Source: Naegleria gruberi
Taxonomy: Eukaryota
Length of the DNA: 64,000 nucleotides
NCBI GenBank assembly: GCA_000004985.1
Contig: GG738851.1
Direction: 5' to 3' (one strand)
The translations under genes were made by a program, and so were the position numbers. Shown here one piece after another: positions 242 to 60,447 of this stretch (the first letter of the stretch is position 1; each line of letters begins with the position of its first letter). Below the pieces are notes generated by a model. The model was given only the letters and a program-made list of their open reading frames with translations, was not told the origin of the DNA and made no database searches.

Positions 242-1141
242 TCAGTAATGAGTGGAGAAGCTTTTGCAGGCCTGGAAAATTGTTGACAGAGAATCCGGAT
301 CCGTTAAGGAATCTTGGAATGAGCCCAACTCAAAATTGGAGATCTTAGCATTATTCGAATCAAGGGCATCATTATAACCTTTCAAGTTAAACTTAACATT
401 ATCAAATTTAGATTGAAAACAAGGAAGAGGAGCGCAATTAAATAAAGGCAACTCGACACACAACATCTTATGTTGCAGGAACATTTCAACATCCCAAAGT
501 CGGCTAGGAGCATGGAATGAGGAAATGATATGATCAGGTCTAGTAAGGTACGGACGGTCCGATCCTCTACTAAGCTTGAATGAGGGACGAGTAGGAGTGG
601 GCGTGAGATCTGATAGATTATACAGCTCCAGCCAGTCTTTGAGAATTTTGGCCTTTTTCTTAATCTTACCATACAGTGTGTTGATATTGAGGTCACCTAG
701 GATTACAATATGCTCGTTATGAAACATGCACTCATCTATCAACTCACTTAATCGGTTCAGTAACTTATTAAATGGACCACCAGTTTTATGATATCCATAC
801 CAATTAATCACATTGACTAATCCGTGATCACACTCAAGGACTGACAAACGACCTTGAATTATTTCCTCAAAAGAAATAATCTTTCTTTGAAGAGTTCCTT
901 TAACTATTGTGATAATACCAGCAGATTTGTCTTTGGGATCAGCATGGGAAGCATAAACTTTGCATGGAGAAAAAAACTTTGCGCATTTAGTGATGTTATC
1001 CTTAATCTCATCAGGTTTCCAATGAGATTCTTGGATGCAGGCAATATCAAGTCTCTCTTGCTTGATAAGGCCAAGGAGAATGGCTTGCTTGTCTATGGAG
1101 AATGAGGAGAGATTACAAGAAGCCATTTGAGTTCCTCTCAC
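242..1141 (-). mobile_element. Non-LTR retrotransposon ORF2, N-terminal APE-type (EEP) endonuclease domain. The ORF ends at the TGA at 242-244 and no intact RT follows in the last 240 bp of the window, so the element may be frameshifted or decayed distally.
   Basis: The translation has the EEP/APE endonuclease layout near the N-terminus: ...LLGLIKQERLDIACIQESHW..., then GDLN, then SDH-type motifs (..HIVILGDLNINT.., ..PTRPSF..). This resembles the R1/TRAS/L1 EN domain (DIALIQEPW-like). The true ATG at 1124-1126 (MASCNLSS) lies 13 nt downstream of the ORF1 stop on the same strand, which is typical bicistronic LINE organisation. Confidence 0.75.
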
Positions 1142-2450
1142 TATTGGTCGTCGTCAGAAAGATCAGCCTTCTTCGAGCTGCCCTTATTGGCACTCGGAGA
1201 GGTATGATCCTTCTTTGAGACCTTTTTACGCTTCAAATCATCACCTGAGTTCGGCTTATTCAAAGTACACACTTCATCAATCCTGTTTTCAACTCCCTTA
1301 ATGAAAGAGAGGTGTTTTTTGAGTTCAAGACTGTGTCTATCAATAGTCGGACAAATAACTTCATCTATGCATTTTTGTTGAGATTGATTTGTCTTCTCTA
1401 CAGCATTATTAGAGCTGTCCAATTTTGAAATTTTAGATTGGAACTCTGTGTGTTCAGTTGAGTTAGTGGAAGACATTTTCAACAATTCATCCTTGAGTGA
1501 GTCAACACTCTTTGTGAGATCATCAAAGACCTTAAAGAGTTTTGTTGTTTTGTCACTCAAATCACTGAGTTGAGCTGGTTGGCTCTTTGAGAACACTGCT
1601 TCCTTATTTAAATTAGCAGTAATAGTATTAAGGTTCTCTAATTCAGTGGATAACTTTGCCACATTGGAGGTGAGATTAGCAACATCGGTTTTAAGTGAGG
1701 AATTTTCAAGAGATAGTTCATTAATTCTCTTTTCAAAATCCTTCTTGAGGTTGTTAAAGTCATCCTTTGAGACAAGGTTATCAAGTACCTTAGGATCGAT
1801 ACTACCACCAGAAGAAGTAGGGATCATTGTGGAACATTTTTGTTGGATCAGCTCCGTAACTTTGGTCAAAAGTGTCGGCTTACCTAATCTTGGATTAAAT
1901 GATAAGTTTTGAATAGTAACTGAGTTCACATAAAGTACTTTGGAGACAGAAGCATTTACAAGGTGGTCCTTTTTAATTTCTGCTTGTATTAAATTACCAA
2001 GGCCGTTGACTTGGATATGTTCTGAAGGAACTTTCCAAGTAGTTGAAATGCTTTGTTTCAATTCCTTCCAGTCAACAGTGGCATCTGGATGCCACTTAAG
2101 TCTAAATGTTGTCACGGAAGTGTCAATTTCTGAAAGAAAATCGGGTTTATTATCAACAACTGCATCCTTAGTAGATACAGCCCAGAACCGAGTAGAAGGA
2201 GTATAATTCATACCAACAATATCAGGAATATGTTCAAGCACCTTACTTAAAGATTCACACCCAAAATCAAGCTTAATTTGGTATTTCACTGAAGCATGCA
2301 CTCTTTGCAGAAACATGTATCCAACCTTATTAGGGATGGTAGACCATGCATTAACGGCTTCTAGAGCATAGTTGTGAGTTACAAAATAAGCAAATGCAAC
2401 ATCCTTGTGATCATTAGGGATTTGAATGCCATGTACTTGATTAGCAGCAA
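1141..2450 (-). mobile_element. Retroelement ORF1, 5'-incomplete at the assembly gap. It has an N-terminal globular region, a central coiled coil and a basic C-terminus.
   Basis: A long minus-strand ORF terminates at the TAG at 1141-1143, immediately upstream of ORF2. The translation contains a heptad-like coiled coil (LKKDFEKRINELSLENSSLKTDVANLTSNVAKLSTELENLNTITANL) and a K/R-rich tail. The track extends it as (GL)n only because the frame runs into the (CCCAAA)n array; that portion is not real coding sequence. Confidence 0.5.
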
Positions 2451-3124: not shown

Positions 3125-3618
3125 AAACTCACCCAAACCCCACCAACCCAAACCCTTGTAAAAATTCCTTAATAATTTTGAAATATTCAAAGTTCAGTAA
3201 GATTGCAAACAATTTACTTTGTTGAATAGTGTATTACAGCCTCATCACATTGCTCGATCAGGAACTTTTTTGAAAAGAAGCAACGGGTTTGAGCCACTCC
3301 AAGCTCATTTGAAATAGTTTCAAGTCGTTTTTACATCGGGTTGGATGACAACCACTGTTTTAAAGATTACAGTTGTGAAAAATCGACTAATCTCAGTCAT
3401 TATTAAGATTTTGAGTATACTCCATTGGAATGTTACCATCTACATACAGTTTAGAACATTTTCCAACCACTTGTAAAACTTCCTTAATTATTGTGAAGTA
3501 AGAAAAGTTCAAAGAATGCAAAAATTTTAATTTGTTGTATAGTATAATACAGTCTCATTCAAAAGGTTGGATAAGTCTCTTTTTTGAAAAGAAGCAACGG
3601 GTTTGAGCAACTCCAAGC
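3125..3618. repeat. Telomere-associated tandem repeat of ~315 bp. Two copies are visible before the gap, preceded by a degenerate telomere-like motif (CACCCAAACCCCACCAACCCAAACCC at 3125-3162).
   Basis: Several blocks recur with a ~315 bp offset. The block 3150-3240 (..cccttgtaaaaattccttaataattttgaaatattcaaagttcagtaagattgcaaacaatttactttgttgaatagtgtattacag) recurs at 3464-3553. The block 3236-3310 (..tttttgaaaagaagcaacgggtttgagccactccaagc) recurs at 3551-3618. Confidence 0.8.
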
Positions 3619-5360
3619 NNNNNNNNNNNNNNNNNNNNNNNNNNNNNNNNNNNNNNNNNNNNNNNNNNNNNNNNNNNNNNNNNNNNNNNNNNNNNNNNNN
3701 NNNNNNNNNNNNNNNNNNNNNNNNNNNNNNNNNNNNNNNNNNNNNNNNNNNNNNNNNNNNNNNNNNNNNNNNNNNNNNNNNNNNNNNNNNNNNNNNNNNN
3801 NNNNNNNNNNNNNNNNNNNNNNNNNNNNNNNNNNNNNNNNNNNNNNNNNNNNNNNNNNNNNNNNNNNNNNNNNNNNNNNNNNNNNNNNNNNNNNNNNNNN
3901 NNNNNNNNNNNNNNNNNNNNNNNNNNNNNNNNNNNNNNNNNNNNNNNNNNNNNNNNNNNNNNNNNNNNNNNNNNNNNNNNNNNNNNNNNNNNNNNNNNNN
4001 NNNNNNNNNNNNNNNNNNNNNNNNNNNNNNNNNNNNNNNNNNNNNNNNNNNNNNNNNNNNNNNNNNNNNNNNNNNNNNNNNNNNNNNNNNNNNNNNNNNN
4101 NNNNNNNNNNNNNNNNNNNNNNNNNNNNNNNNNNNNNNNNNNNNNNNNNNNNNNNNNNNNNNNNNNNNNNNNNNNNNNNNNNNNNNNNNNNNNNNNNNNN
4201 NNNNNNNNNNNNNNNNNNNNNNNNNNNNNNNNNNNNNNNNNNNNNNNNNNNNNNNNNNNNNNNNNNNNNNNNNNNNNNNNNNNNNNNNNNNNNNNNNNNN
4301 NNNNNNNNNNNNNNNNNNNNNNNNNNNNNNNNNNNNNNNNNNNNNNNNNNNNNNNNNNNNNNNNNNNNNNNNNNNNNNNNNNNNNNNNNNNNNNNNNNNN
4401 NNNNNNNNNNNNNNNNNNNNNNNNNNNNNNNNNNNNNNNNNNNNNNNNNNNNNNNNNNNNNNNNNNNNNNNNNNNNNNNNNNNNNNNNNNNNNNNNNNNN
4501 NNNNNNNNNNNNNNNNNNNNNNNNNNNNNNNNNNNNNNNNNNNNNNNNNNNNNNNNNNNNNNNNNNNNNNNNNNNNNNNNNNNNNNNNNNNNNNNNNNNN
4601 NNNNNNNNNNNNNNNNNNNNNNNNNNNNNNNNNNNNNNNNNNNNNNNNNNNNNNNNNNNNNNNNNNNNNNNNNNNNNNNNNNNNNNNNNNNNNNNNNNNN
4701 NNNNNNNNNNNNNNNNNNNNNNNNNNNNNNNNNNNNNNNNNNNNNNNNNNNNNNNNNNNNNNNNNNNNNNNNNNNNNNNNNNNNNNNNNNNNNNNNNNNN
4801 NNNNNNNNNNNNNNNNNNNNNNNNNNNNNNNNNNNNNNNNNNNNNNNNNNNNNNNNNNNNNNNNNNNNNNNNNNNNNNNNNNNNNNNNNNNNNNNNNNNN
4901 NNNNNNNNNNNNNNNNNNNNNNNNNNNNNNNNNNNNNNNNNNNNNNNNNNNNNNNNNNNNNNNNNNNNNNNNNNNNNNNNNNNNNNNNNNNNNNNNNNNN
5001 NNNNNNNNNNNNNNNNNNNNNNNNNNNNNNNNNNNNNNNNNNNNNNNNNNNNNNNNNNNNNNNNNNNNNNNNNNNNNNNNNNNNNNNNNNNNNNNNNNNN
5101 NNNNNNNNNNNNNNNNNNNNNNNNNNNNNNNNNNNNNNNNNNNNNNNNNNNNNNNNNNNNNNNNNNNNNNNNNNNNNNNNNNNNNNNNNNNNNNNNNNNN
5201 NNNNNNNNNNNNNNNNNNNNNNNNNNNNNNNNNNNNNNNNNNNNNNNNNNNNNNNNNNNNNNNNNNNNNNNNNNNNNNNNNNNNNNNNNNNNNNNNNNNN
5301 NNNNNNNNNNNNNNNNNNNNNNNNNNNNNNNNNNNNNNNNNNNNNNNNNNNNNNNNNNNN
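3619..5360. other. Assembly gap (1742 N). True size and content are unknown.
   Basis: A run of n characters. The same repeat family is seen on both sides of the gap, so it probably holds more repeat copies. Confidence 0.95.
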
Positions 5361-5402: not shown

Positions 5403-5421
5403 ATACCCAAACCCAAACCCA
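5403..5421. repeat. Short (CCCAAA)3 remnant after the gap
   Basis: cccaaacccaaacccaaacccc is read directly from the sequence. Confidence 0.8.
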
Positions 5422-5439
5422 AACCCCGAGGTAAACTAT

Positions 5440-11239: not shown

Positions 11240-12636
11240 TCAATAATCAGAACCTCTACTCAATACTTCCTTACAGGTTGGTCTCAAGAAGATGGTATGT
11301 TCAAATTGAGCAGTATAACATCCTTTAACATCTACAAATGGTGGATATTCATTGACTATTCCATTGTTAACCAAATCACGAAGAGCAGTGAGATATTTTT
11401 TTTGACCAGTTCTGTCCAAGTATCTACGACAAAATGGAATGGATCCAAAATGGTCATTGATGACTTTAAGTAGCTCTCTAGATTCCTTATTTTTCAATTC
11501 AGAACCGTCACCATTGTAGGTAAATTTTCTTCCATAATGTGAGCATACACCTTCTTCAATGACATATCCTTTTCCAGTGGAACCAAAAGTTTCAATTGCA
11601 AAGAATTCATTTTCTTCCATTTTGGTGTTATTAGAAGAAGCAACAATTGGAACTGATTTACCTGCATGAACATGATATCTTTCAATAGAATGTCCACACA
11701 AGTTTTGAATGCTTTTAACTCTGTGAGTTTTTCCATTAATAATCTATTAGTGGTAGTTCAATAAACAATTAACATTGTAAATAAATCAATTAATTCAAAA
11801 TAAATACGTACAACTTCATAAGATTCCATTACTTCTTGAATAGCAGCTCCAACATCTCCTAATCTAACATCAATGCCAGCTGTTCTGACACCCATGTTTG
11901 TTGCTTCCTTGACAGCATCCAACAATGGCTGATATTGATCATTCCAACACATGGTAAATGCAGAATCAATAATGGTTCCATTTACATGAGTTCCCAAATC
12001 AAACTTGATCACATCATCCTTTCCAATAAGAGTTTCATCTCCACCATTTGGTGAATAATGAGCAGCAACATGATTGATGGAACAACCCAATGGAAATGCG
12101 AGTCCACTCTTCTTCTTGTCAGCTTCCAACAATTCTCTAACCTTTGCTTCATACATTTCAGCTGCATCAATAACCTTCATTCCAGGTTTAACAACTGAAT
12201 CCTTGAACCATTTTCTGGCAGTTCTATGAACCTCAGCTGCTTGTCTTGCTTCCATGAGCTGTTCTTGTAACTTTTCCTCTCTTTCTTCAGTATTAGGTTT
12301 CAATTCGGAAGGATGAAATCTCTTGGTCTTGTAATCATATTGTCCCAATTCACAGATTTCTCCCTCTGGAAACTTTCCGTCCTTATACAAATGCTTGATT
12401 GGTACAGTTGGTTCAGGTTGAGTTTGTTCAGTTGGCCATACTTTTTGTTTGTTTGAATGATTGTTAACTGATGGAATTGGCTTTGAGCTTTCCTTTTCAT
12501 TCTTCTTGCTCATTTCCATCAAAAACTTCATCTCATCATCAAAATGGGTGTTTACATTCTTCTTCTTGGAAGTAGTTGAGCCGCCGCCTCTGGTAGATAG
12601 AGTTTGTGCTGATAAAGTGCTCTTCTTGATGGACAT
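11240..12636 (-). CDS. METAP2: Methionine aminopeptidase 2 (MetAP2, M24A peptidase). It has two exons, 12636..11812 and 11744..11240, separated by a 67-bp GTACGT..AG intron at 11745..11811.
   Basis: The N-terminus is poly-Lys/Ser. The pita-bread catalytic core carries [28 protein letters not shown], ..[47 protein letters not shown] and the C-terminal [27 protein letters not shown]. The splice restores the conserved ...SYEV|IINGK junction. Confidence 0.85.
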
Positions 12637-42509: not shown

Positions 42510-44219
42510 ATGTTTGACAAGCCAAGTAATCTCTGCTCTCAGTCTTTTGATATTGAAAAACAAGTTTGCTTTTCCAACTCCTCTGATACTGATGTGGTCG
42601 ATTTGTTTTGGATTGATTATTCGGGTGCTGAGGTTTTTATTAGTACCATTGCTCCAAAGCAACAAGTTGGACAGAAAACCTTTGCTACTCATCCCTTCCT
42701 GATGAGAAGTTTATTGAGCAGAAAGATTGTGGGCTTGTTTGTGATTGATGAGCAATTGCCCGATCGATCAACATTGAAATATGGTGAAAATAATTATAAT
42801 ACAAGTGGCAACAGTAAAAGTAGTGGTGGAATGATTCCTACACCTGGTGATGCTCCACCTCGTTTGTTTGAAAAGATTACTTATAGAAATAGTATTGTAG
42901 GAAGTCAAGATCAATATTATGGTTTGAAATCAGCAACTGGAACTTGGCCTGCAGAGCTACATGTAAAGAATAGAACTGGACATAATTTGGAGTCTTATTG
43001 GATTGATTTTGAAGGTAATTTGAGAAGTTATGGAATTTTGGATTCTGGAAAGAATTTTGATAGTATGAGTGGACATGGTCATATCTTTCTTTTCAAAACT
43101 CCTGATGGTTCCTATCAGAAGATAATTACTGCCTCATCTGAAAAACCTTCTCAATTCCTCGATCCTGATGAAATTGAAATTACTGCCTCAGTGATAGATT
43201 CACCTTCAGAAACTAGTTGTCACTCTATTCTTGAGAAGCATATTCAAGGAAGGTGTGGACGTGCACTCAAGTTTTTCACTGAACCTCACATTGATCGGAT
43301 CATTTCAGAAATTGAAACCAAACTCAAACAAGAAGGAAAACGATTCATTGATGAAGACTTTTTCCCAGGAGATAATTGGAAGAGAGCTAGTGATTATTTC
43401 AAAAATCAAGCCAGTATTTTCAAAGGTGATATTTCTCCAAAAGCACCAATACAAGGAGGAGCAGGTGATTGTTGGTTAATCCAATCAATGAGTGGAGCAG
43501 CCACCTTACCAGACAAGATTAAGGAAGTATTTTGCAAGTGTGAACATATTGATCCATCATTGGGATTGTTTGTCTTGTCTTTCCATTCAACAGATGGTTC
43601 AAAAATATTCATTCTCTTGGATGATTACTTTCAATTTACATCAACCAATTTTAAATGTTCAAGGAGTAGTACAGTTGGAGAATTGTGGGTTCCGTTAATT
43701 GAGAAGGCATTTGCAAAACTGTGTGGAAGCTTTGAATCCCTTCATCCAGTTGTTGGAAATCATGGTATTAATCCTGCTGAAGTGTTGTTGTACTTATTAA
43801 GCGGCAAAAATGGTAAAAACATTCAATGGTACTCTGCTGAGGGGAAAACTATAATCTCTCAGGGAAAATTCTATCCACTCGTGGAGAGTTTATTGGACAG
43901 TAAAAAGAGCGTACCAGTCTGTACCAGTAATGCTAATACCAAGGAGGGCTATGTTGATGAGTATGGAATTGTTCACTATCATGGATATTCCATGTTGGGT
44001 TATAGAAAATATCCTCAACACGGCATCAATCTTCTCCACATAAGAAATACATGGTCCAAACAGGAATGGAATGGTTTGTGGTCTGATAATTGTGTACAAT
44101 GGGCCAAATATCCTGATATTGCCAGTGAACTGAGAAGTGTTTCAGAAGATGGATGCTTTTGGATATCATATGATGATTTTGTAAATCACTTTTGTGTACT
44201 TTGGTGGAATGAATTTTAA
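42510..44219 (+). CDS. Calpain-type cysteine protease (catalytic core only, no penta-EF-hand), 569 aa
   Basis: The catalytic Cys motif is QGGAGDCWLIQSMSGAA. The His region is VHYHGYSMLGY. The Asn/Trp region is IRNTWSKQEWNGLWSD. Confidence 0.7.
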   Translation: MFDKPSNLCSQSFDIEKQVCFSNSSDTDVVDLFWIDYSGAEVFISTIAPKQQVGQKTFATHPFLMRSLLSRKIVGLFVIDEQLPDRSTLKYGENNYNTSGNSKSSGGMIPTPGDAPPRLFEKITYRNSIVGSQDQYYGLKSATGTWPAELHVKNRTGHNLESYWIDFEGNLRSYGILDSGKNFDSMSGHGHIFLFKTPDGSYQKIITASSEKPSQFLDPDEIEITASVIDSPSETSCHSILEKHIQGRCGRALKFFTEPHIDRIISEIETKLKQEGKRFIDEDFFPGDNWKRASDYFKNQASIFKGDISPKAPIQGGAGDCWLIQSMSGAATLPDKIKEVFCKCEHIDPSLGLFVLSFHSTDGSKIFILLDDYFQFTSTNFKCSRSSTVGELWVPLIEKAFAKLCGSFESLHPVVGNHGINPAEVLLYLLSGKNGKNIQWYSAEGKTIISQGKFYPLVESLLDSKKSVPVCTSNANTKEGYVDEYGIVHYHGYSMLGYRKYPQHGINLLHIRNTWSKQEWNGLWSDNCVQWAKYPDIASELRSVSEDGCFWISYDDFVNHFCVLWWNEF

Positions 44220-49049: not shown

Positions 49050-49514
49050 ATGCCACCATCATCAAAACAATCATCATCATCGCCATCAGTAGGAAAGAAA
49101 ATCAAGTATTTTCCTCGTGTTGAAAAGGCAGAGCAATTAATCACCAAAGGACATATGGCCCAATTCGGTGCCCTCGTTGGAATGAAAATGAGAGAAGAAT
49201 TAAGAGAACAAATCCGTGAGTACGAATTCGATGTAATTCGAAGACTAATGAAAAAGTCCATTTTGCTGGTAGCCGTAGATGAGGTTGGAAAATCAACAAC
49301 TTCTAATGGCATTTGGAACGTCGATGGCAATACTATGAGAATGTCATTTAGATCAGAATTGTCATACAAGTTGATGGGTGTGTCAAGTAATGACCAAGAG
49401 GATGAAGATTATCACGATGAAGAGGAAGAAGAATCTGAAGTAATAATAGTGAGTGATGATGAAGATTTTGAAAATTATGTTGATGAAGAAGAAATTGAAG
49501 AGGAGGATGAATAA
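49050..49514 (+). CDS. Small acidic protein (154 aa) with a poly-Glu/Asp C-terminus
   Basis: An ORF with an ATG start. Confidence 0.4.
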   Translation: MPPSSKQSSSSPSVGKKIKYFPRVEKAEQLITKGHMAQFGALVGMKMREELREQIREYEFDVIRRLMKKSILLVAVDEVGKSTTSNGIWNVDGNTMRMSFRSELSYKLMGVSSNDQEDEDYHDEEEEESEVIIVSDDEDFENYVDEEEIEEEDE

Positions 49515-49862: not shown

Positions 49863-50323
49863 ATGAGATCTGCCGGAGTTGTATGTACTGTTTAATTAGT
49901 TGTAATTCCGTTATTAATTATCATCATCCTTAATATTTTCATCATTGTGGTCATGATACAATTATACAATGAATTTTATCATAAAAAAACCATATCAACA
50001 ACCAATAGGCCTATCTTTTATGGTTATTATGCTGTGTTGGCTTTTGTGGTATTCATAGATTTTATCTGGATTCACTCATTCTCGGAATTGTTAGTTTCTT
50101 AACGTGTGGTATCTTTGGTATTTTGCAGCTAATTGATTTGATTTTGATTCCTGGCATGGTTGATGTATGCAATGCCAAATTTATGCAAAAGACAACAACT
50201 GTTGTTGTTCAACCAGTGCAAACACAAGCAGGTGTAGTTGTTGTACAAAATGCTCAACAACAACAATTCCATTCATCTACTCAACAAGTTGTTACAACAA
50301 CCACAACCACTACCACCAACTAA
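49863..50323 (+). CDS. TM2-domain membrane protein. It has two exons, 49863..49880 and 50009..50323, separated by a 128-bp GTATGT..TAG intron. It is not in the ORF track because exon 1 is only 6 codons.
   Basis: The spliced product is MRSAGV|AYLLWLLCCVGFCGIHRFYLDSLILGIVSFLTCGIFGILQLIDLILIPGMVD..., matching the TM2 consensus (fLG.hRFYLG....G...l.T.GG.giw.liD.i). The C-terminus is T/Q/V-rich. Confidence 0.55.
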
Positions 50324-50560
50324 TTTTTGTACAAATCAAGATTCCAATCCAAAATAAAAAAGAATTATTTCAGAAATTGGACATTTTAGATTTCCCATTA
50401 AAGAGATTCTACATTTTAAGGATTTGAGTCAGACCAATTTAAACGAATCAAAGTGAAACTATACCGAATCAAAAACAATCAAAAACAAATTGATATCATT
50501 CAATCAGCTACCTTTCCAATCAAACTAACCAACTAACTGTCAAATAACCTGTTCGAAACC

Positions 50561-50911
50561 ATGAAAAAGATACTCTTCATTGTTCTGGTTTGCATTCTGG
50601 CTGCCCTATTCTTCAATGCTGATAAAGCTGATGGACAATTAGTGTACAGCTACCGTTATGCATATAGTTACCCTTACTCCTATGGTTACTCGTATCCATA
50701 CTCATATGGCTATTCCTACCCATATAGTTACGGATACTCATATCCATACAGCTATGGTTACTCATATCCATATAGCTATGCTTATTCCTATAGTTATCCT
50801 TACTCATACGGTGGTTATGGTTATCCTTACTCATATGGTGGTTATGGCTACCCTTACTCCTATGGTTACAGTTATCCTTATTCTTATGCTTATTCATACC
50901 GTTATTGGTAA
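50561..50911 (+). CDS. Secreted tyrosine-rich tandem-repeat protein: a signal peptide followed by about 11 repeats of (G/A)YSYPYSY
   Basis: The translation is MKKILFIVLVCILAALFFNADKADG + YSYRYAYSYPYSYGYSYPYSYGYSYPYSYG.... The underlying 24-nt DNA repeats differ at synonymous positions. Confidence 0.7.
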   Translation: MKKILFIVLVCILAALFFNADKADGQLVYSYRYAYSYPYSYGYSYPYSYGYSYPYSYGYSYPYSYGYSYPYSYAYSYSYPYSYGGYGYPYSYGGYGYPYSYGYSYPYSYAYSYRYW

Positions 50912-51540
50912 AGAAACCAATCAATGTAATTTTTTCGAAACTCTTAGTGAGACCTTGTGAGACCATCATATACCAATAAAAAAAATTAATTTGTGTGAAA
51001 CAACAATCGCTTCATTTTCAATTATTGGACTAAACATGGACCGTCCAATATGAAGTCGACATTCTGTCAAAATTATGCAAAGATAAAAGTGGACCAAATT
51101 GTGATATCAAGGCATTTTCCATATATCAATCGAAACCGATCATTTTCTATTCTGTTACGTTGTGATTACAGTAAAATGCAAAGCTCTATTTTAGATAGGA
51201 TAAACCTTTCAAATTTCCTATGGTGGTCTTGTCTTTCTTGTGAATGGAACAACAAAATTCATCGTTGCATTCAGGGGTTTATTCACAACAACGTTGAACA
51301 CTAGTTTTGGCAAAATGAAAATTTGTGGATTAGGAAGGAAATATTTCCAACTTTTGAATTGGAAAAGATAACCAACTAGATTGAGAATTTTGTAAAGATA
51401 ACACTTCCAATTCAATAACTCCCTTCATGGAAAATGAATTCAATAATTCAATTCCCCAACCTGATCATTTTCCATTTTTAGAAAATATTCAAATAGATTT
51501 TTCCAAAAACGAAACTTAACATTATTCGAAAAAAAATCAA

Positions 51541-52692
51541 ATGAAACAAAAACTACCTTCCAACATTAAAGTACTCATACTTTCTCTCCTTCTGGTCCTA
51601 CTACTCTACTGTAATCTTTCACATTCGGCCAGTTTACGTGGAGAATCTAGTACGAATCCAACCGATTCAAATCCGAAATCACCATTAGCTCCAGTTCAAG
51701 GTGGCGCCTACATTATCAGTAGCCAACAACCATCCACAGCCACACAGCAACAACCTACTCAAGGATCTGTCACTCAACAAACTCAAATCGATCCAAATTC
51801 TCAAAACCAAGTCGTGTCCACAACCTCGTATCCAGCATCTGCAAATCCAACTTCGATTACGGTTATTTATCCGAGTGGAGCTACTCCTAGTAGTCAAAAT
51901 CCAGTAATTCCTAGTCAACCTACTCAGACACAACCTACACAACCTACTCAGACGCAACCAACACAACCAAGTCAACCATTGCCACAGCCACAGCCACAAC
52001 CAATTCCAAATCAAAATCAACAACAATCATATCCACAATATTCACAACAAAGTACCTATAGTCAATATACAACTGGTCAACCACAACAACAGCAACAACA
52101 ACCTTATTATGGAAATAATCAACAACAACAACCTGTCTATTCACAACAACCAGTTTATAGTCAACCACAACAACAACAACAACCTTATTATGGAAATACT
52201 CAATATGCTCCACAACAATCTTATCCTCAAAATCAATATGTCCAACAGCAACCAGTGTATAGCCAACCAGTCCAACAACAACAACAACCTTATTATACTT
52301 CATCACCTCAATATGCTCCTGTCCAGAGTGGTCAACCAGCTTATTATCCACAAACACAACAGCCATACTATGGAAACACTCAATATGTCCAACAACAGCC
52401 TCAATATGTTCCACAAACTCAATATGTCCAACAACCTTACAATGGTGGTGCTCAATATTATTATCCACAACAATCTTATCCTCAAACTCAATATGTCCAA
52501 CAACCATACTATGGAACAACTGGTTATGCTGCACAACCATATGTATCGGGTGGATATCCTGCAACCACAGCTGTTGCGCCTGGCTATGGCTATGCTGCTC
52601 CTGCTGCAACTGCTGGATATGGTTATGCAGCTCCTGCAGTTGCCTATCAACCACAAGCTGTTTATTCTTCCTATCCTGCTTATTACTATTAG
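51541..52692 (+). CDS. Secreted Gln/Pro/Thr/Tyr-rich low-complexity protein (383 aa) with QQPYYGNTQYVQQQP-type repeats and a C-terminal GYGYAAPA repeat
   Basis: The signal peptide is MKQKLPSNIKVLILSLLLVLLLYCNLSHSA. The repeats are PTQ(T/P)QPTQPTQ, Q-rich and Y-rich. Overlapping ORFs on both strands are repeat artefacts. Confidence 0.65.
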   Translation: MKQKLPSNIKVLILSLLLVLLLYCNLSHSASLRGESSTNPTDSNPKSPLAPVQGGAYIISSQQPSTATQQQPTQGSVTQQTQIDPNSQNQVVSTTSYPASANPTSITVIYPSGATPSSQNPVIPSQPTQTQPTQPTQTQPTQPSQPLPQPQPQPIPNQNQQQSYPQYSQQSTYSQYTTGQPQQQQQQPYYGNNQQQQPVYSQQPVYSQPQQQQQPYYGNTQYAPQQSYPQNQYVQQQPVYSQPVQQQQQPYYTSSPQYAPVQSGQPAYYPQTQQPYYGNTQYVQQQPQYVPQTQYVQQPYNGGAQYYYPQQSYPQTQYVQQPYYGTTGYAAQPYVSGGYPATTAVAPGYGYAAPAATAGYGYAAPAVAYQPQAVYSSYPAYYY

Positions 52693-52795: not shown

Positions 52796-54712
52796 TTATT
52801 CCTTCAATTCAATTTCATTCCTATGTTCCTCTTCAAGGATTGGTGTTTCATTGTGATGAATGGTTGTTGGTTCGGCTGCTGCATCAAAGTGAAGTTCATG
52901 AGCTGGTTCAATTTGATCATGAATTGGAACTGGTTGACCATTTCCTGTATCCTGAGCACGAGACAATCTAACACAGAAAATCATGAATGAAGATAGTACT
53001 TGGAGTGATGCACCAAGAGCGTACAATAACAGGTAGCCCATTCCAACAACATCTGGTGCAATAGCATCACCAATTAAAATGATCAATCCTCCCAAAGGTA
53101 CACCCAATAATTCAGGAACTGTACCAGAAATATTCCACAAGGCCAAATCCTTTCCAGAATCATCTTTGGTAATCAGAACTGAATTTACAAGTGACAAGTC
53201 CACACTAATAAATGATCCAATACCCAAACCATAGAGAATGGAGCAACACAGAATCATTACACTGTAAGATCTGAAAATGATTAAAATAATACTGGCAATA
53301 CCACAGCCCAAGGCACCAGCACTGTACACATATCTTCTTCCAATAAGCCCGGCTATTTTTTGTGCAAATAATGCACTAACAAATGTAAAAGCGAAAACAA
53401 TTCCAAGGAATAAACTCAAAGCTTCCTCATTATTGGTTGGGAATTTGTTGGTCAAGATGAAATTATATGGAGTCAAAACTTCTTGAATAAAATAGAAAAA
53501 GTAATTTCTGGCAGCAGCATTTGTCAATTGAATAGTGAAACGAGTAATAAAAACCCAAGTAAAATTCCTATTCTTGAATGGAACCAAAAATGCAAGAGCA
53601 TAATTGAGGGCTCTCTTGTAGAATCGTGGTTTTGGTGCTTCTTGTGCAGGTTCTGTAGTGAGTGGAACGTCTTCAAATTCTCCTGGTTTCTTGGCAGCTT
53701 CCTTTTCAATTTGTTTGACCTTTGTCTTTCTAAGCTCTCTATGGAAGAGCATGAGAGGTACACAAACAATTGAACACAGAGCTGCATATCCCAAACATAC
53801 CCAAATCAAATCAACATGACCAATTATCACACCTCCCAAAACAACTCCCAACATGACTCCAATCAAAGTAAAAACACCAACAAGTGCTGAAACCAAATTG
53901 ATTTGTTCTTGTGGGAACAAATCTGTTACCATTGCAGTCACAATAGCTTGTGAAGTGACATATCCACATTTTCCGATACACAGCACAGCTCCATACATGA
54001 CAAATATGAAAACATAATACTGTGGAAACTGTGTATGCATCATTGAACAAATAGATTGCAGAATAATCATCAATGCCCACACCAGAGTAGTAACCACAAC
54101 AATTGGAATACGTGATTTCCTACCAATCCTATCAGAAATATTACCAACTATGGGACTAACAATCACTCCGATAACTGTTGCAATAGAAACAACAATACTC
54201 AAGTAGAGTTCCTTATTTTCTGATCCCAACATTTGAACGACAAGTTTTGGCAATAACAATCCAAGTACAAACGAACTTGTTGAACCACTTCCTATATAAT
54301 ATATAGAATATCCAATTGTTTTGTAGAGTGGTTGTCTTTGTAATCCATCATGATGAAGATTTTGTGGAACTTTCTCATGATGTTGACTATCAATTGTGTT
54401 GTTATCATCATTGTGAGGAGTTGATGGTGTATCTAATCTTGCCAATTCCTCTCCCATTACATCTAACATGGGTTTTGCAATGGTTCTCTCTGGATGTTTA
54501 ATGTCTATTGGTTCCAAGTGAAACGAGGAGGTCATTGGATTGTATTCGGTCAGAATGCCAATGCCTTCATTAGAATGATGGCTATGAGAAGAAACGTGGG
54601 AGGAGAAGGAAGCAGTATGGGCTGATGTAGGTGTTTTCTGTTGTTGTTGTTGTTGTATTGGATGAGAGGCGATATCTTCATTGTGAGGATTCCCTGATGA
54701 TGATAGATTCAT
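52796..54712 (-). CDS. Major facilitator superfamily transporter with a ~170-aa disordered His/Gln/Ser-rich N-terminal extension
   Basis: There are 12 predicted TM helices. The MFS loop 2-3 signature is GNISDRIGRKSRIPIVVVT. A large central loop is present. Confidence 0.7.
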   Translation of the reverse strand: MNLSSSGNPHNEDIASHPIQQQQQQKTPTSAHTASFSSHVSSHSHHSNEGIGILTEYNPMTSSFHLEPIDIKHPERTIAKPMLDVMGEELARLDTPSTPHNDDNNTIDSQHHEKVPQNLHHDGLQRQPLYKTIGYSIYYIGSGSTSSFVLGLLLPKLVVQMLGSENKELYLSIVVSIATVIGVIVSPIVGNISDRIGRKSRIPIVVVTTLVWALMIILQSICSMMHTQFPQYYVFIFVMYGAVLCIGKCGYVTSQAIVTAMVTDLFPQEQINLVSALVGVFTLIGVMLGVVLGGVIIGHVDLIWVCLGYAALCSIVCVPLMLFHRELRKTKVKQIEKEAAKKPGEFEDVPLTTEPAQEAPKPRFYKRALNYALAFLVPFKNRNFTWVFITRFTIQLTNAAARNYFFYFIQEVLTPYNFILTNKFPTNNEEALSLFLGIVFAFTFVSALFAQKIAGLIGRRYVYSAGALGCGIASIILIIFRSYSVMILCCSILYGLGIGSFISVDLSLVNSVLITKDDSGKDLALWNISGTVPELLGVPLGGLIILIGDAIAPDVVGMGYLLLYALGASLQVLSSFMIFCVRLSRAQDTGNGQPVPIHDQIEPAHELHFDAAAEPTTIHHNETPILEEEHRNEIELKE

Positions 54713-60374: not shown

Positions 60375-60447
60375 GCCCGTCTAGCTCAGTCGGTAGAGCG
60401 CAAGGCTCTTAACCTTGTGGTCGTGGGTTCGACCCCCACGGTGGGCG
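60375..60447 (+). tRNA. tRNA-Lys (anticodon CUU)
   Basis: GCCCGTCTAGCTCAGTCGGTAGAGCGCAAGGCTCTTAACCTTGTGGTCGTGGGTTCGACCCCCACGGTGGGCG. It has a 7-bp acceptor stem, a CTCTTAA anticodon loop and a GTGGG/TTCGACC/CCCAC T-arm. It is close to canonical eukaryotic tRNA-Lys(CUU). Confidence 0.9.

Follow-up and report, generated by a model that had tools for sequence, protein, structure and literature searches.

An unannotated open reading frame of Naegleria gruberi encodes a candidate secreted protein of alternating tyrosine repeats

A short open reading frame (ORF) at positions 50561-50911 (plus strand) of a 64,000-nucleotide stretch of Naegleria gruberi contig GG738851.1 (assembly GCA_000004985.1; the whole stretch is referred to as the window) appears to encode a signal peptide followed by a chain in which tyrosine alternates with serine, proline and glycine. 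The locus raises the question of whether such a frame is a gene or a minisatellite held open by chance and, if it is a gene, how its repeats have been maintained and what the exported product might do. The flanking ORFs match proteins of the soil amoeba N. gruberi NEG-M exactly (693,645-bp scaffold). The evidence described below makes it very probable that the ORF is a real gene for a secreted Tyr-repeat protein.

The ORF runs from ATG to TAA (stop codon at 50909..50911) in a single exon of 116 codons, giving a product of 116 amino acids (aa). An in-frame TAA on the same strand (50534..50536) lies 27 nucleotides (nt) 5' of the ATG with no alternative start codon in between, so the ATG at 50561 is the first possible start; the base at -3 relative to it is A. 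A putative polyadenylation signal, AATAAA, is found at 50975..50980 (plus strand), 64 nt 3' of the stop. The near-identical AATAAAAAAGAATTATTT occurs at 50353, 30 nt past the stop of the upstream TM2-domain gene. The product consists of MKKILFIVLVCILAALFFNADKADG, then QLV, then an 88-residue Tyr-X stretch that ends in ...YSYRYW. Inspection, hydropathy and the helix predicted by AlphaFold2 (AF2) mark residues 1-25 (50561..50635) as a putative signal peptide composed of MKK, ILFIVLVCILAALFF and NADKADG. Its hydrophobic region (h-region) of 15 residues has a mean Kyte-Doolittle value of 3.44, and A and G occupy the -3 and -1 positions (A-D-G) before the cleavage point at Q26. Cleavage probably follows G25 or, alternatively, A23. 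If cleavage after G25 is assumed, the mature chain (50636..50908) has 91 aa, a mass of 11.2 kDa and an isoelectric point (pI) of 8.4, and is 47% Tyr (43 residues), 21% Ser, 12% Gly and 10% Pro. It contains no Lys, Asp, Glu or Cys and only two Arg (R32 and R114). An earlier interpretation made from the DNA letters (the sequence-only reading) had proposed a signal peptide followed by a mature chain made up of octads; the N-terminus was indeed canonical in appearance, and the ORF lay exactly where it had been placed.

Tyr occupies every second residue from Y29 to Y115 (50645..50905, plus strand). The intervening positions cycle through Ser, Pro, Ser and Gly, with Ala or Arg now and then, and two GG insertions (codons 85-86 and 94-95) are the only breaks in register. 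The array can be parsed into five canonical YPYSYGYS units, five variant octads and short extras, which makes the earlier count of about 11 octapeptide repeats a fair one. The five canonical 24-nt units, encoding YPYSYG(A)YS at 50669..50788 (plus strand), are 95% identical as protein and 73% identical as DNA; Tandem Repeats Finder (TRF) reported a period of 24 at 50675-50791 with a 76% match. They are followed by a younger-looking sub-array of 27-nt units (YS/GYPYSYGG; 50789..50880, plus strand; TRF period 27, 82% match), two of which share 93% DNA identity.

Codon usage in the array is mixed. Tyr is encoded by 18 TAC and 25 TAT codons, Pro by five CCT and four CCA codons, and Ser by all six of its codons. 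The codon diversification described previously was therefore recovered for Tyr, Ser and Pro, with the correction that CCC is absent in frame and had been read out of frame from TAC-CCA. The G+C content at third codon positions (GC3) of the ORF is 0.34. The gene looks native to Naegleria, since both GC3 and the Tyr codon share are within the range of neighbouring Naegleria genes. A codon bias of the kind associated with high expression was considered, given that GGT accounts for 8 of 12 Gly codons (8 of 11 in the mature chain), CGT for both Arg codons and TAC for 42% of Tyr codons, and was rejected, as the TAC share and GC3 were like those of ordinary neighbours and the comparison of TAC with background gave P = 0.06.

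In tandem repeats several frames stay open; there are three overlapping ORFs of 100-118 aa at this locus, and the 116-aa ORF is unannotated. These features would be expected if the frame were open by chance in a non-coding minisatellite, or if the true gene were the antisense 118-aa ORF (50613-50969) or the +1-frame ORF (50658-50960). However, the variation between units falls at the third positions of the ORF frame only. Pairwise mismatch among the five canonical units rose from 0.075 at first and 0.125 at second codon positions to 0.60 at third positions, and 48 of the 52 codon differences among these units were synonymous in the ORF frame, with four non-synonymous. Reading these DNA differences in each of the other five frames gave 0-25 synonymous vs. 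28-54 non-synonymous changes; the frame with 25 synonymous differences is full of stops, and the antisense and shifted frames gave 0-6 synonymous vs. 47-54 non-synonymous changes. The signal peptide, too, exists in the ORF frame only, and its ATG is preceded by A at -3. The synonymous and non-synonymous counts rule out the chance minisatellite ORF, the antisense 118-aa ORF and the shifted 100-aa ORF, and we regard the whole of this alternative as highly improbable. Purifying selection on the protein, as proposed by the sequence-only reading, is borne out by the 48:4 synonymous excess and the third-position mismatch, both seen in this frame only. Ser codons alternate between the AGY and TCN families; a switch between the two takes two substitutions by way of a non-Ser intermediate and therefore also points to a long-standing constraint on the peptide. 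The coding frame is real and under purifying selection for the peptide repeat.

The mixture of codons had also been taken as a sign of selection against perfect nucleotide repeats. Repeat avoidance was evaluated by permuting the synonymous codons of the gene among sites for the same amino acid (5000 permutations). The longest exact repeat was 21 nt, compared to 16.7±3.3 nt in the permuted sequences (P = 0.11 for a value at least as large as that observed), there were 19 repeated 12-mers (permuted, 10.8±6.7), and 20 codons were identical to the codon one octad apart (permuted, 22.3±3.3). The number of TAC/TAT runs was 26 with 21.9±3.2 expected (P = 0.13). The permutation test has power, as an ORF encoding one of the bacterial look-alikes described below gave an exact repeat of 53 nt vs. 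17.4±2.9 nt expected. The codon arrangement cannot be told apart from random and is, if anything, slightly less dispersed, and the proposed selection against perfect repeats was not upheld. Selection for codon diversity is not needed to explain the array. Most simply, the array is read as old, with synonymous sites that reached saturation while purifying selection acted on the peptide; the 27-nt sub-array would be slightly younger. The locus offers a clean case for repeat evolution, in which the peptide repeat is kept by purifying selection while the synonymous sites are fully randomized, and it illustrates that a conserved peptide with randomized codons is, by itself, no proof of selection against DNA repeats.

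The position of the ORF among annotated genes bears on why it has not been described. The nearest exact matches to N. gruberi proteins are D2V3U6 (NAEGRDRAFT_63493; 49050-49514) on one side and D2V3U8, an MFS transporter (52796-54712, minus strand), on the other; D2V3U1 (42510-44219) is a further exact match. Between D2V3U6 and D2V3U8 there is one UniProt number (D2V3U7) vs. three ORFs, namely the TM2-domain gene, the 116-aa ORF and a 383-aa ORF. This shortage of numbers, together with the absence of the product from protein collections (see below), leads us to infer that the 116-aa ORF was missed by the reference annotation. Three things set the gene apart: how extreme its composition is, that the reference annotation lacks it, and that bacteria have convergent look-alikes.

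Homology searches with the Naegleria protein detected no orthologue or paralogue. A word-indexed search of 5.8 billion clusters gave nine matches (E 2e-7 to 1e-3), and a HMMER search over 1.84 billion representatives gave 40 matches with E ≤ 1e-3, none of them below 1e-30. The matches inspected were heterogeneous periodic low-complexity proteins, that is, compositional look-alikes. Pfam contained no family for the protein, and the PDB gave one chance match at E 0.38. No relative was confirmed when 185,579 prokaryotic species genomes were scanned with the Naegleria protein, and the metagenome and prokaryote-genome scans recovered bacterial analogues only.

The closest layout was that of small, bacterial-type secreted proteins (P0001-P0007) with a YSYPYSYG(G) core (E 2e-7 to 9e-5), one of which, P0002, sits in a bacterial genomic context. 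A soil metagenome contig (L001; Ga0126369_10021185) carries two adjacent small bacterial-type ORFs (2-337 and 422-781) with YSYPYSYGG-type repeats, and one of the two ends in ...YYYYYRRW vs. ...YSYRYW in the Naegleria protein. In the first of these ORFs, an exact DNA repeat of 53 nt indicates recent duplication; in the second, codons are fully randomized, and a Sec-type signal peptide and RFDRDDFRF repeats lie ahead of the Tyr core. A family of uncharacterized secreted proteins of about 100-120 aa was also found in Sphingomonadaceae (P0003, P0006 and P0007, and L007 and L008 from Sphingomicrobium and Sphingomonas metagenome-assembled genomes); its members combine (PYSYGYS)n repeats with a C-terminal motif that is conserved and contains Cys, C-x-R-x-HHRNGVxYYTRVC.

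The bacterial look-alikes resemble the Naegleria protein in size (100-120 aa), in the signal peptide, in their PYSYGYS-type Tyr repeats and in a basic/aromatic end, and they share identical 8-9-mers with it, such as YSYPYSYGG. The only matches with the same architecture (a signal peptide, a YSYPYSYG-type core and a basic Tyr/Arg/Trp tail) are bacterial-type ORFs, which would fit descent from soil-bacterial secreted repeat proteins by horizontal transfer into a bacterivorous amoeba. Against such a transfer, the similarity is limited to the low-complexity core, and the signal peptides (of bacterial type in the look-alikes) and flanks are unrelated: alignments showed identity only in the Tyr core and at generic signal-peptide positions. 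Each bacterial family has its own conserved tail, Asp/Arg/His-rich in one and the Cys-containing RNGVxYYTRVC in another, and these flanks are absent from the Naegleria protein. The common S-P-S-G order is weak evidence because two Ser, one Pro and one Gly per unit allow only three cyclic orders. Codon usage and GC3 are native to Naegleria, and the scan of prokaryotic species genomes likewise speaks against a bacterial source. We therefore consider transfer very unlikely, and the likeness to the bacterial repeat proteins is best read as convergence in sequence.

Comparison with characterized Tyr-rich proteins places the product near several structural systems without assigning it to any. The Tyr-rich regions of Eimeria GAM56 and GAM82 undergo processing and are thought to enter the oocyst wall through dityrosine cross-links (PMC2726925). 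Like these protist proteins, the Naegleria product has a signal peptide (in Naegleria, by inspection) and a Tyr-rich stretch, and the GAM proteins are precursors of a resistant-stage wall thought to be hardened by dityrosine or 3,4-dihydroxyphenylalanine (DOPA) cross-links (PMC2726925). In GAM56 and GAM82, however, the Tyr-rich region makes up 55-77 aa of a proteolytically processed glycoprotein of about 56-82 kDa with conserved non-repetitive domains, whereas the whole mature Naegleria chain is repeat, with no non-repetitive domain and with no processing needed or evident. No similarity to GAM56 or GAM82 was found in the 5.8 billion clusters, the 1.84 billion representatives or Pfam. The mollusc shell-matrix proteins prisilkin-39, KRMP-3, prismalin-14 and the shematrins are also secreted, repetitive, low-complexity proteins rich in Gly, Tyr and Ser; in KRMP-3, chitin is bound by the Gly/Tyr region, for which quinone tanning has been proposed (PMC4498902). 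The mollusc proteins differ from the Naegleria protein in being Gly-dominated (GGY-type), in carrying extra basic or acidic domains and in serving metazoan biomineralization; the Naegleria protein has only 12% Gly, no second domain and no Lys. A look-alike named 'prisilkin-39-like' (P0140; E 4.9e-9) was a compositional match, the name having been given automatically to a protein from an aphid-relative insect.

Extensins and other hydroxyproline-rich glycoproteins (HRGPs) are secreted, extended wall proteins rich in Pro, Ser and Tyr that are made insoluble by peroxidases acting at Y-X-Y motifs. The Naegleria protein has such motifs continuously from residue 29 to 115. It lacks the Ser-Pro(3-5) blocks that define extensins, with no two adjacent Pro anywhere, and Tyr is its majority residue but only an occasional cross-link site in extensins. 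The [G/S]Y[G/S] domains of the FUS family are uncharged, Tyr/Ser/Gly-rich, disordered and self-associating. They are intracellular, lack a signal peptide, are Gln-rich and have Tyr about every 5-8 residues, in contrast to every second residue in the Naegleria protein. Homology was found to none of the named families considered, and on its sequence features the product is best filed as an orphan secreted Tyr-rich repetitive structural protein.

Structure prediction suggested little order beyond the N-terminus. AlphaFold2 predicted a single N-terminal helix (residues 2-33; predicted local distance difference test (pLDDT) 75-94), and residues 36-116 stayed at a pLDDT <50 and lacked secondary structure, whether the input was the single sequence or a pseudo-alignment of look-alikes. 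Our best guess from these models is that the repeat chain is extended, disordered or polyproline II (PPII)-like. A function can be proposed by analogy with the systems described above. The sequence-only reading had likened such Tyr-rich repeats to cross-linked extracellular materials of walls, coats and cuticles, which is a plausible comparison. After cleavage of the signal peptide, an intrinsically disordered, uncharged Tyr-X polymer of about 11 kDa would be exported. In an extended chain, the alternation would set about 40 phenol rings on one face. By stacking, this face could contact other copies of itself, partner proteins or wall polysaccharide. Oxidation outside the cell, by an oxidase or a peroxidase, might also form di- or isodityrosine or DOPA/quinone links at the Y-X-Y sites, converting a soluble secreted chain into an insoluble, protease-resistant matrix. 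N. gruberi forms cysts, and the cyst wall would be the likeliest location of such a matrix, which the adjacent Gln/Pro/Tyr-rich protein may join. We propose tentatively, and at somewhat less than an even chance, that the product is a disordered matrix protein that works by stacking of its Tyr residues and by their oxidative cross-linking, with the cyst wall as its most likely site.

Several observations weigh against this proposal. The exact 116-aa product, like that of the 383-aa neighbour, is absent from a 15-billion-protein collection, and a homology search that included the N. gruberi proteome matched no Naegleria protein. No orthologue that would show conservation between species was found in any search. 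The signal peptide was assigned by inspection, and the recurrence of Pro at every fourth X position speaks against regular packing of the chain into beta-sheets. No clear bias towards high expression was seen in codon usage, and no oxidase, peroxidase or wall-polysaccharide gene is linked to the ORF in the window. A search of the literature found no description of the protein composition of the Naegleria cyst wall or of a wall proteome; it also returned nothing relevant on the repeat motif, on dityrosine in Naegleria or on cyst transcriptomes, and a DyP-type peroxidase was all that one paper mentioned for N. gruberi (PMC4420034).

Other roles were weighed against the same evidence. The protein could be a non-covalent adhesive or coating secreted by the feeding amoeba for substrate adhesion, prey capture or a surface coat, in which case it would be a sticky binder, neither cross-linked nor specific to cysts. 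The sequence evidence for this role is identical to that for a matrix protein, and nothing in the present evidence ties the gene to encystment. Contacts between proteins and their ligands draw most heavily on Tyr, Ser and Gly. In KRMP-3, moreover, the Gly/Tyr region binds chitin without a cross-linking step (PMC4498902). However, no observation ties the gene to trophozoites either, and a chain that is nearly half Tyr, with Y-X-Y throughout, is more extreme than known non-covalent adhesins. The gene is also missing from the N. gruberi annotation, which was built largely on amoeba and flagellate transcripts. An adhesive role is rather unlikely on balance. A distinctly unlikely alternative is that the N-terminus remains uncleaved and the protein is either membrane-anchored or an intracellular, Tyr-rich, FUS-like condensate former. 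The signal peptide was judged by inspection only, AF2 shows one long N-terminal helix, and low-complexity domains of the [G/S]Y[G/S] type drive intracellular phase separation. On the other hand, an h-region of 15 residues is too short for a typical membrane anchor and is followed by a polar c-region with A and G at -3 and -1, the n-region (MKK) is classic, and the hydrophobic segment lies right at the start of the protein as in secreted proteins.

A signal peptide ahead of short tandem units is also the layout of repeat-type precursors, such as the fungal ustiloxin type, and the product could be cut into many small Tyr-containing peptides resembling pheromones or ribosomally synthesized and post-translationally modified peptides (RiPPs). 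There are no dibasic or other recognizable processing sites between the units, the only basic residues being R32 and R114, and no modifying-enzyme gene is adjacent, which leaves a precursor role scarcely probable. The cross-linked matrix protein remains the reading that we prefer, and it can be extended, more speculatively, to a joint one. The protein would be a major, Tyr-cross-linked scaffold of the cyst wall, perhaps together with its Gln/Pro/Tyr-rich neighbour, and the YSYPYSYG module would have arisen independently in soil bacteria. Such a scaffold might have been overlooked because gene finders skipped the gene and because a chain with no Lys and two Arg is nearly invisible to tryptic proteomics; trypsin would cut only after the two Arg, releasing QLVYSYR, an 82-residue peptide and YW, so standard proteomics would miss the mature chain. 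This combined reading is rather unlikely as a whole. If true, it would represent a convergent, minimal 'tyrosine-ladder' material across domains of life. As regards the protein part of the Naegleria cyst wall, a secreted chain that is half Tyr is a concrete candidate, and cysts are the disinfection-resistant stage of the pathogenic relative N. fowleri. The locus also illustrates how extreme low-complexity genes slip past both annotation and trypsin-based proteomics.

The two ORFs that accompany the Tyr-repeat gene between D2V3U6 and D2V3U8 are of different kinds. Directly upstream is the TM2-domain gene (49864-50323, plus strand), which has short introns and matches Pfam PF05154 with 43.8 bits; its GIHRFYLD...LIDLILIPG domain is followed by a Thr/Gln/Val-rich tail. 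On the other side lies the second putatively secreted, low-complexity gene (51541..52692, plus strand; 383 aa). Its product has a predicted signal peptide, is almost uncharged (Gln 25%, Pro 15%, Tyr 14%) and is rich in Gln, Pro, Tyr, Ser and Thr, with QQQPYYGN-type repeats that recall those of glutenins and an end that reads ...SSYPAYYY. The GC3 of this gene (0.17) is the lowest among the ORFs of the window, and Pfam contained no family for its product. Upstream motifs common to the two secreted genes were limited to the short and unconvincing TAACCAACTA and TTCCAATCNAA. The neighbour is best regarded as context and as a possible functional partner of the Tyr-repeat protein. Rfam and tRNA scans gave no match at the Tyr-repeat locus itself.

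Synteny was compared at the loci of the MFS-transporter orthologues, within ±10 kb in N. lovaniensis and in Willaertia magna and over the whole 6-kb contig that holds the orthologue in a Naegleria-like SRA assembly. None of these three stretches contained a Tyr-repeat ORF, a negative limited by the loss of local synteny, since no other gene of the window matched the N. lovaniensis locus either. The broken synteny fits the position of the gene about 48 kb from a telomere-like array.

That array, (CCCAAA)n at 2501-2923, comprises about 70 near-perfect units (99% matches; TRF). A gap of 50 N (feature from 2451) borders it on the left, and degenerate or short copies occur at 3133-3155 and 5406-5426. 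The C-rich strand runs 5' to 3' with gene-rich DNA at its right, which is the orientation expected for a left chromosome end, and the array looks like a Naegleria telomere that scaffolding has joined to further sequence. If so, the Tyr-repeat gene is subtelomeric, about 48 kb in. Just beyond the array is a non-long-terminal-repeat (non-LTR)-retrotransposon-like element (242-2450, minus strand) with two ORFs. One (1141-2450) encodes an ORF1-like coiled-coil protein, and the match of the other (242-1141) to endonuclease/exonuclease/phosphatase is weak, falling below the Pfam cut-off (E 1e-4). The element may be a telomere-associated retroelement. A 1.7-kb N run (assembly gap 3620-5360) separates the subtelomeric sequence from the first genes. 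The sequences before gaps at 3270-3300 and 3585-3620 repeat each other (GAAAAGAAGCAACGGGTTTGAGC), which suggests a subtelomeric repeat family.

Elsewhere in the window, the only Rfam matches were a tRNA-Met (CAT; 23089-23160, minus strand) and a tRNA-Lys (CTT; 60375-60447, plus strand). A methionine aminopeptidase 2 gene with one intron (11240-12636) is 100% identical to an N. gruberi protein, the next match being N. lovaniensis at 72%. A 1070-aa ORF (26787-29999, minus strand) has a very long, acidic, Glu/Thr/Ser/Pro-rich, low-complexity C-terminal half with a terminal poly-Lys/Asn tail and represents a further extreme low-complexity gene in the region.

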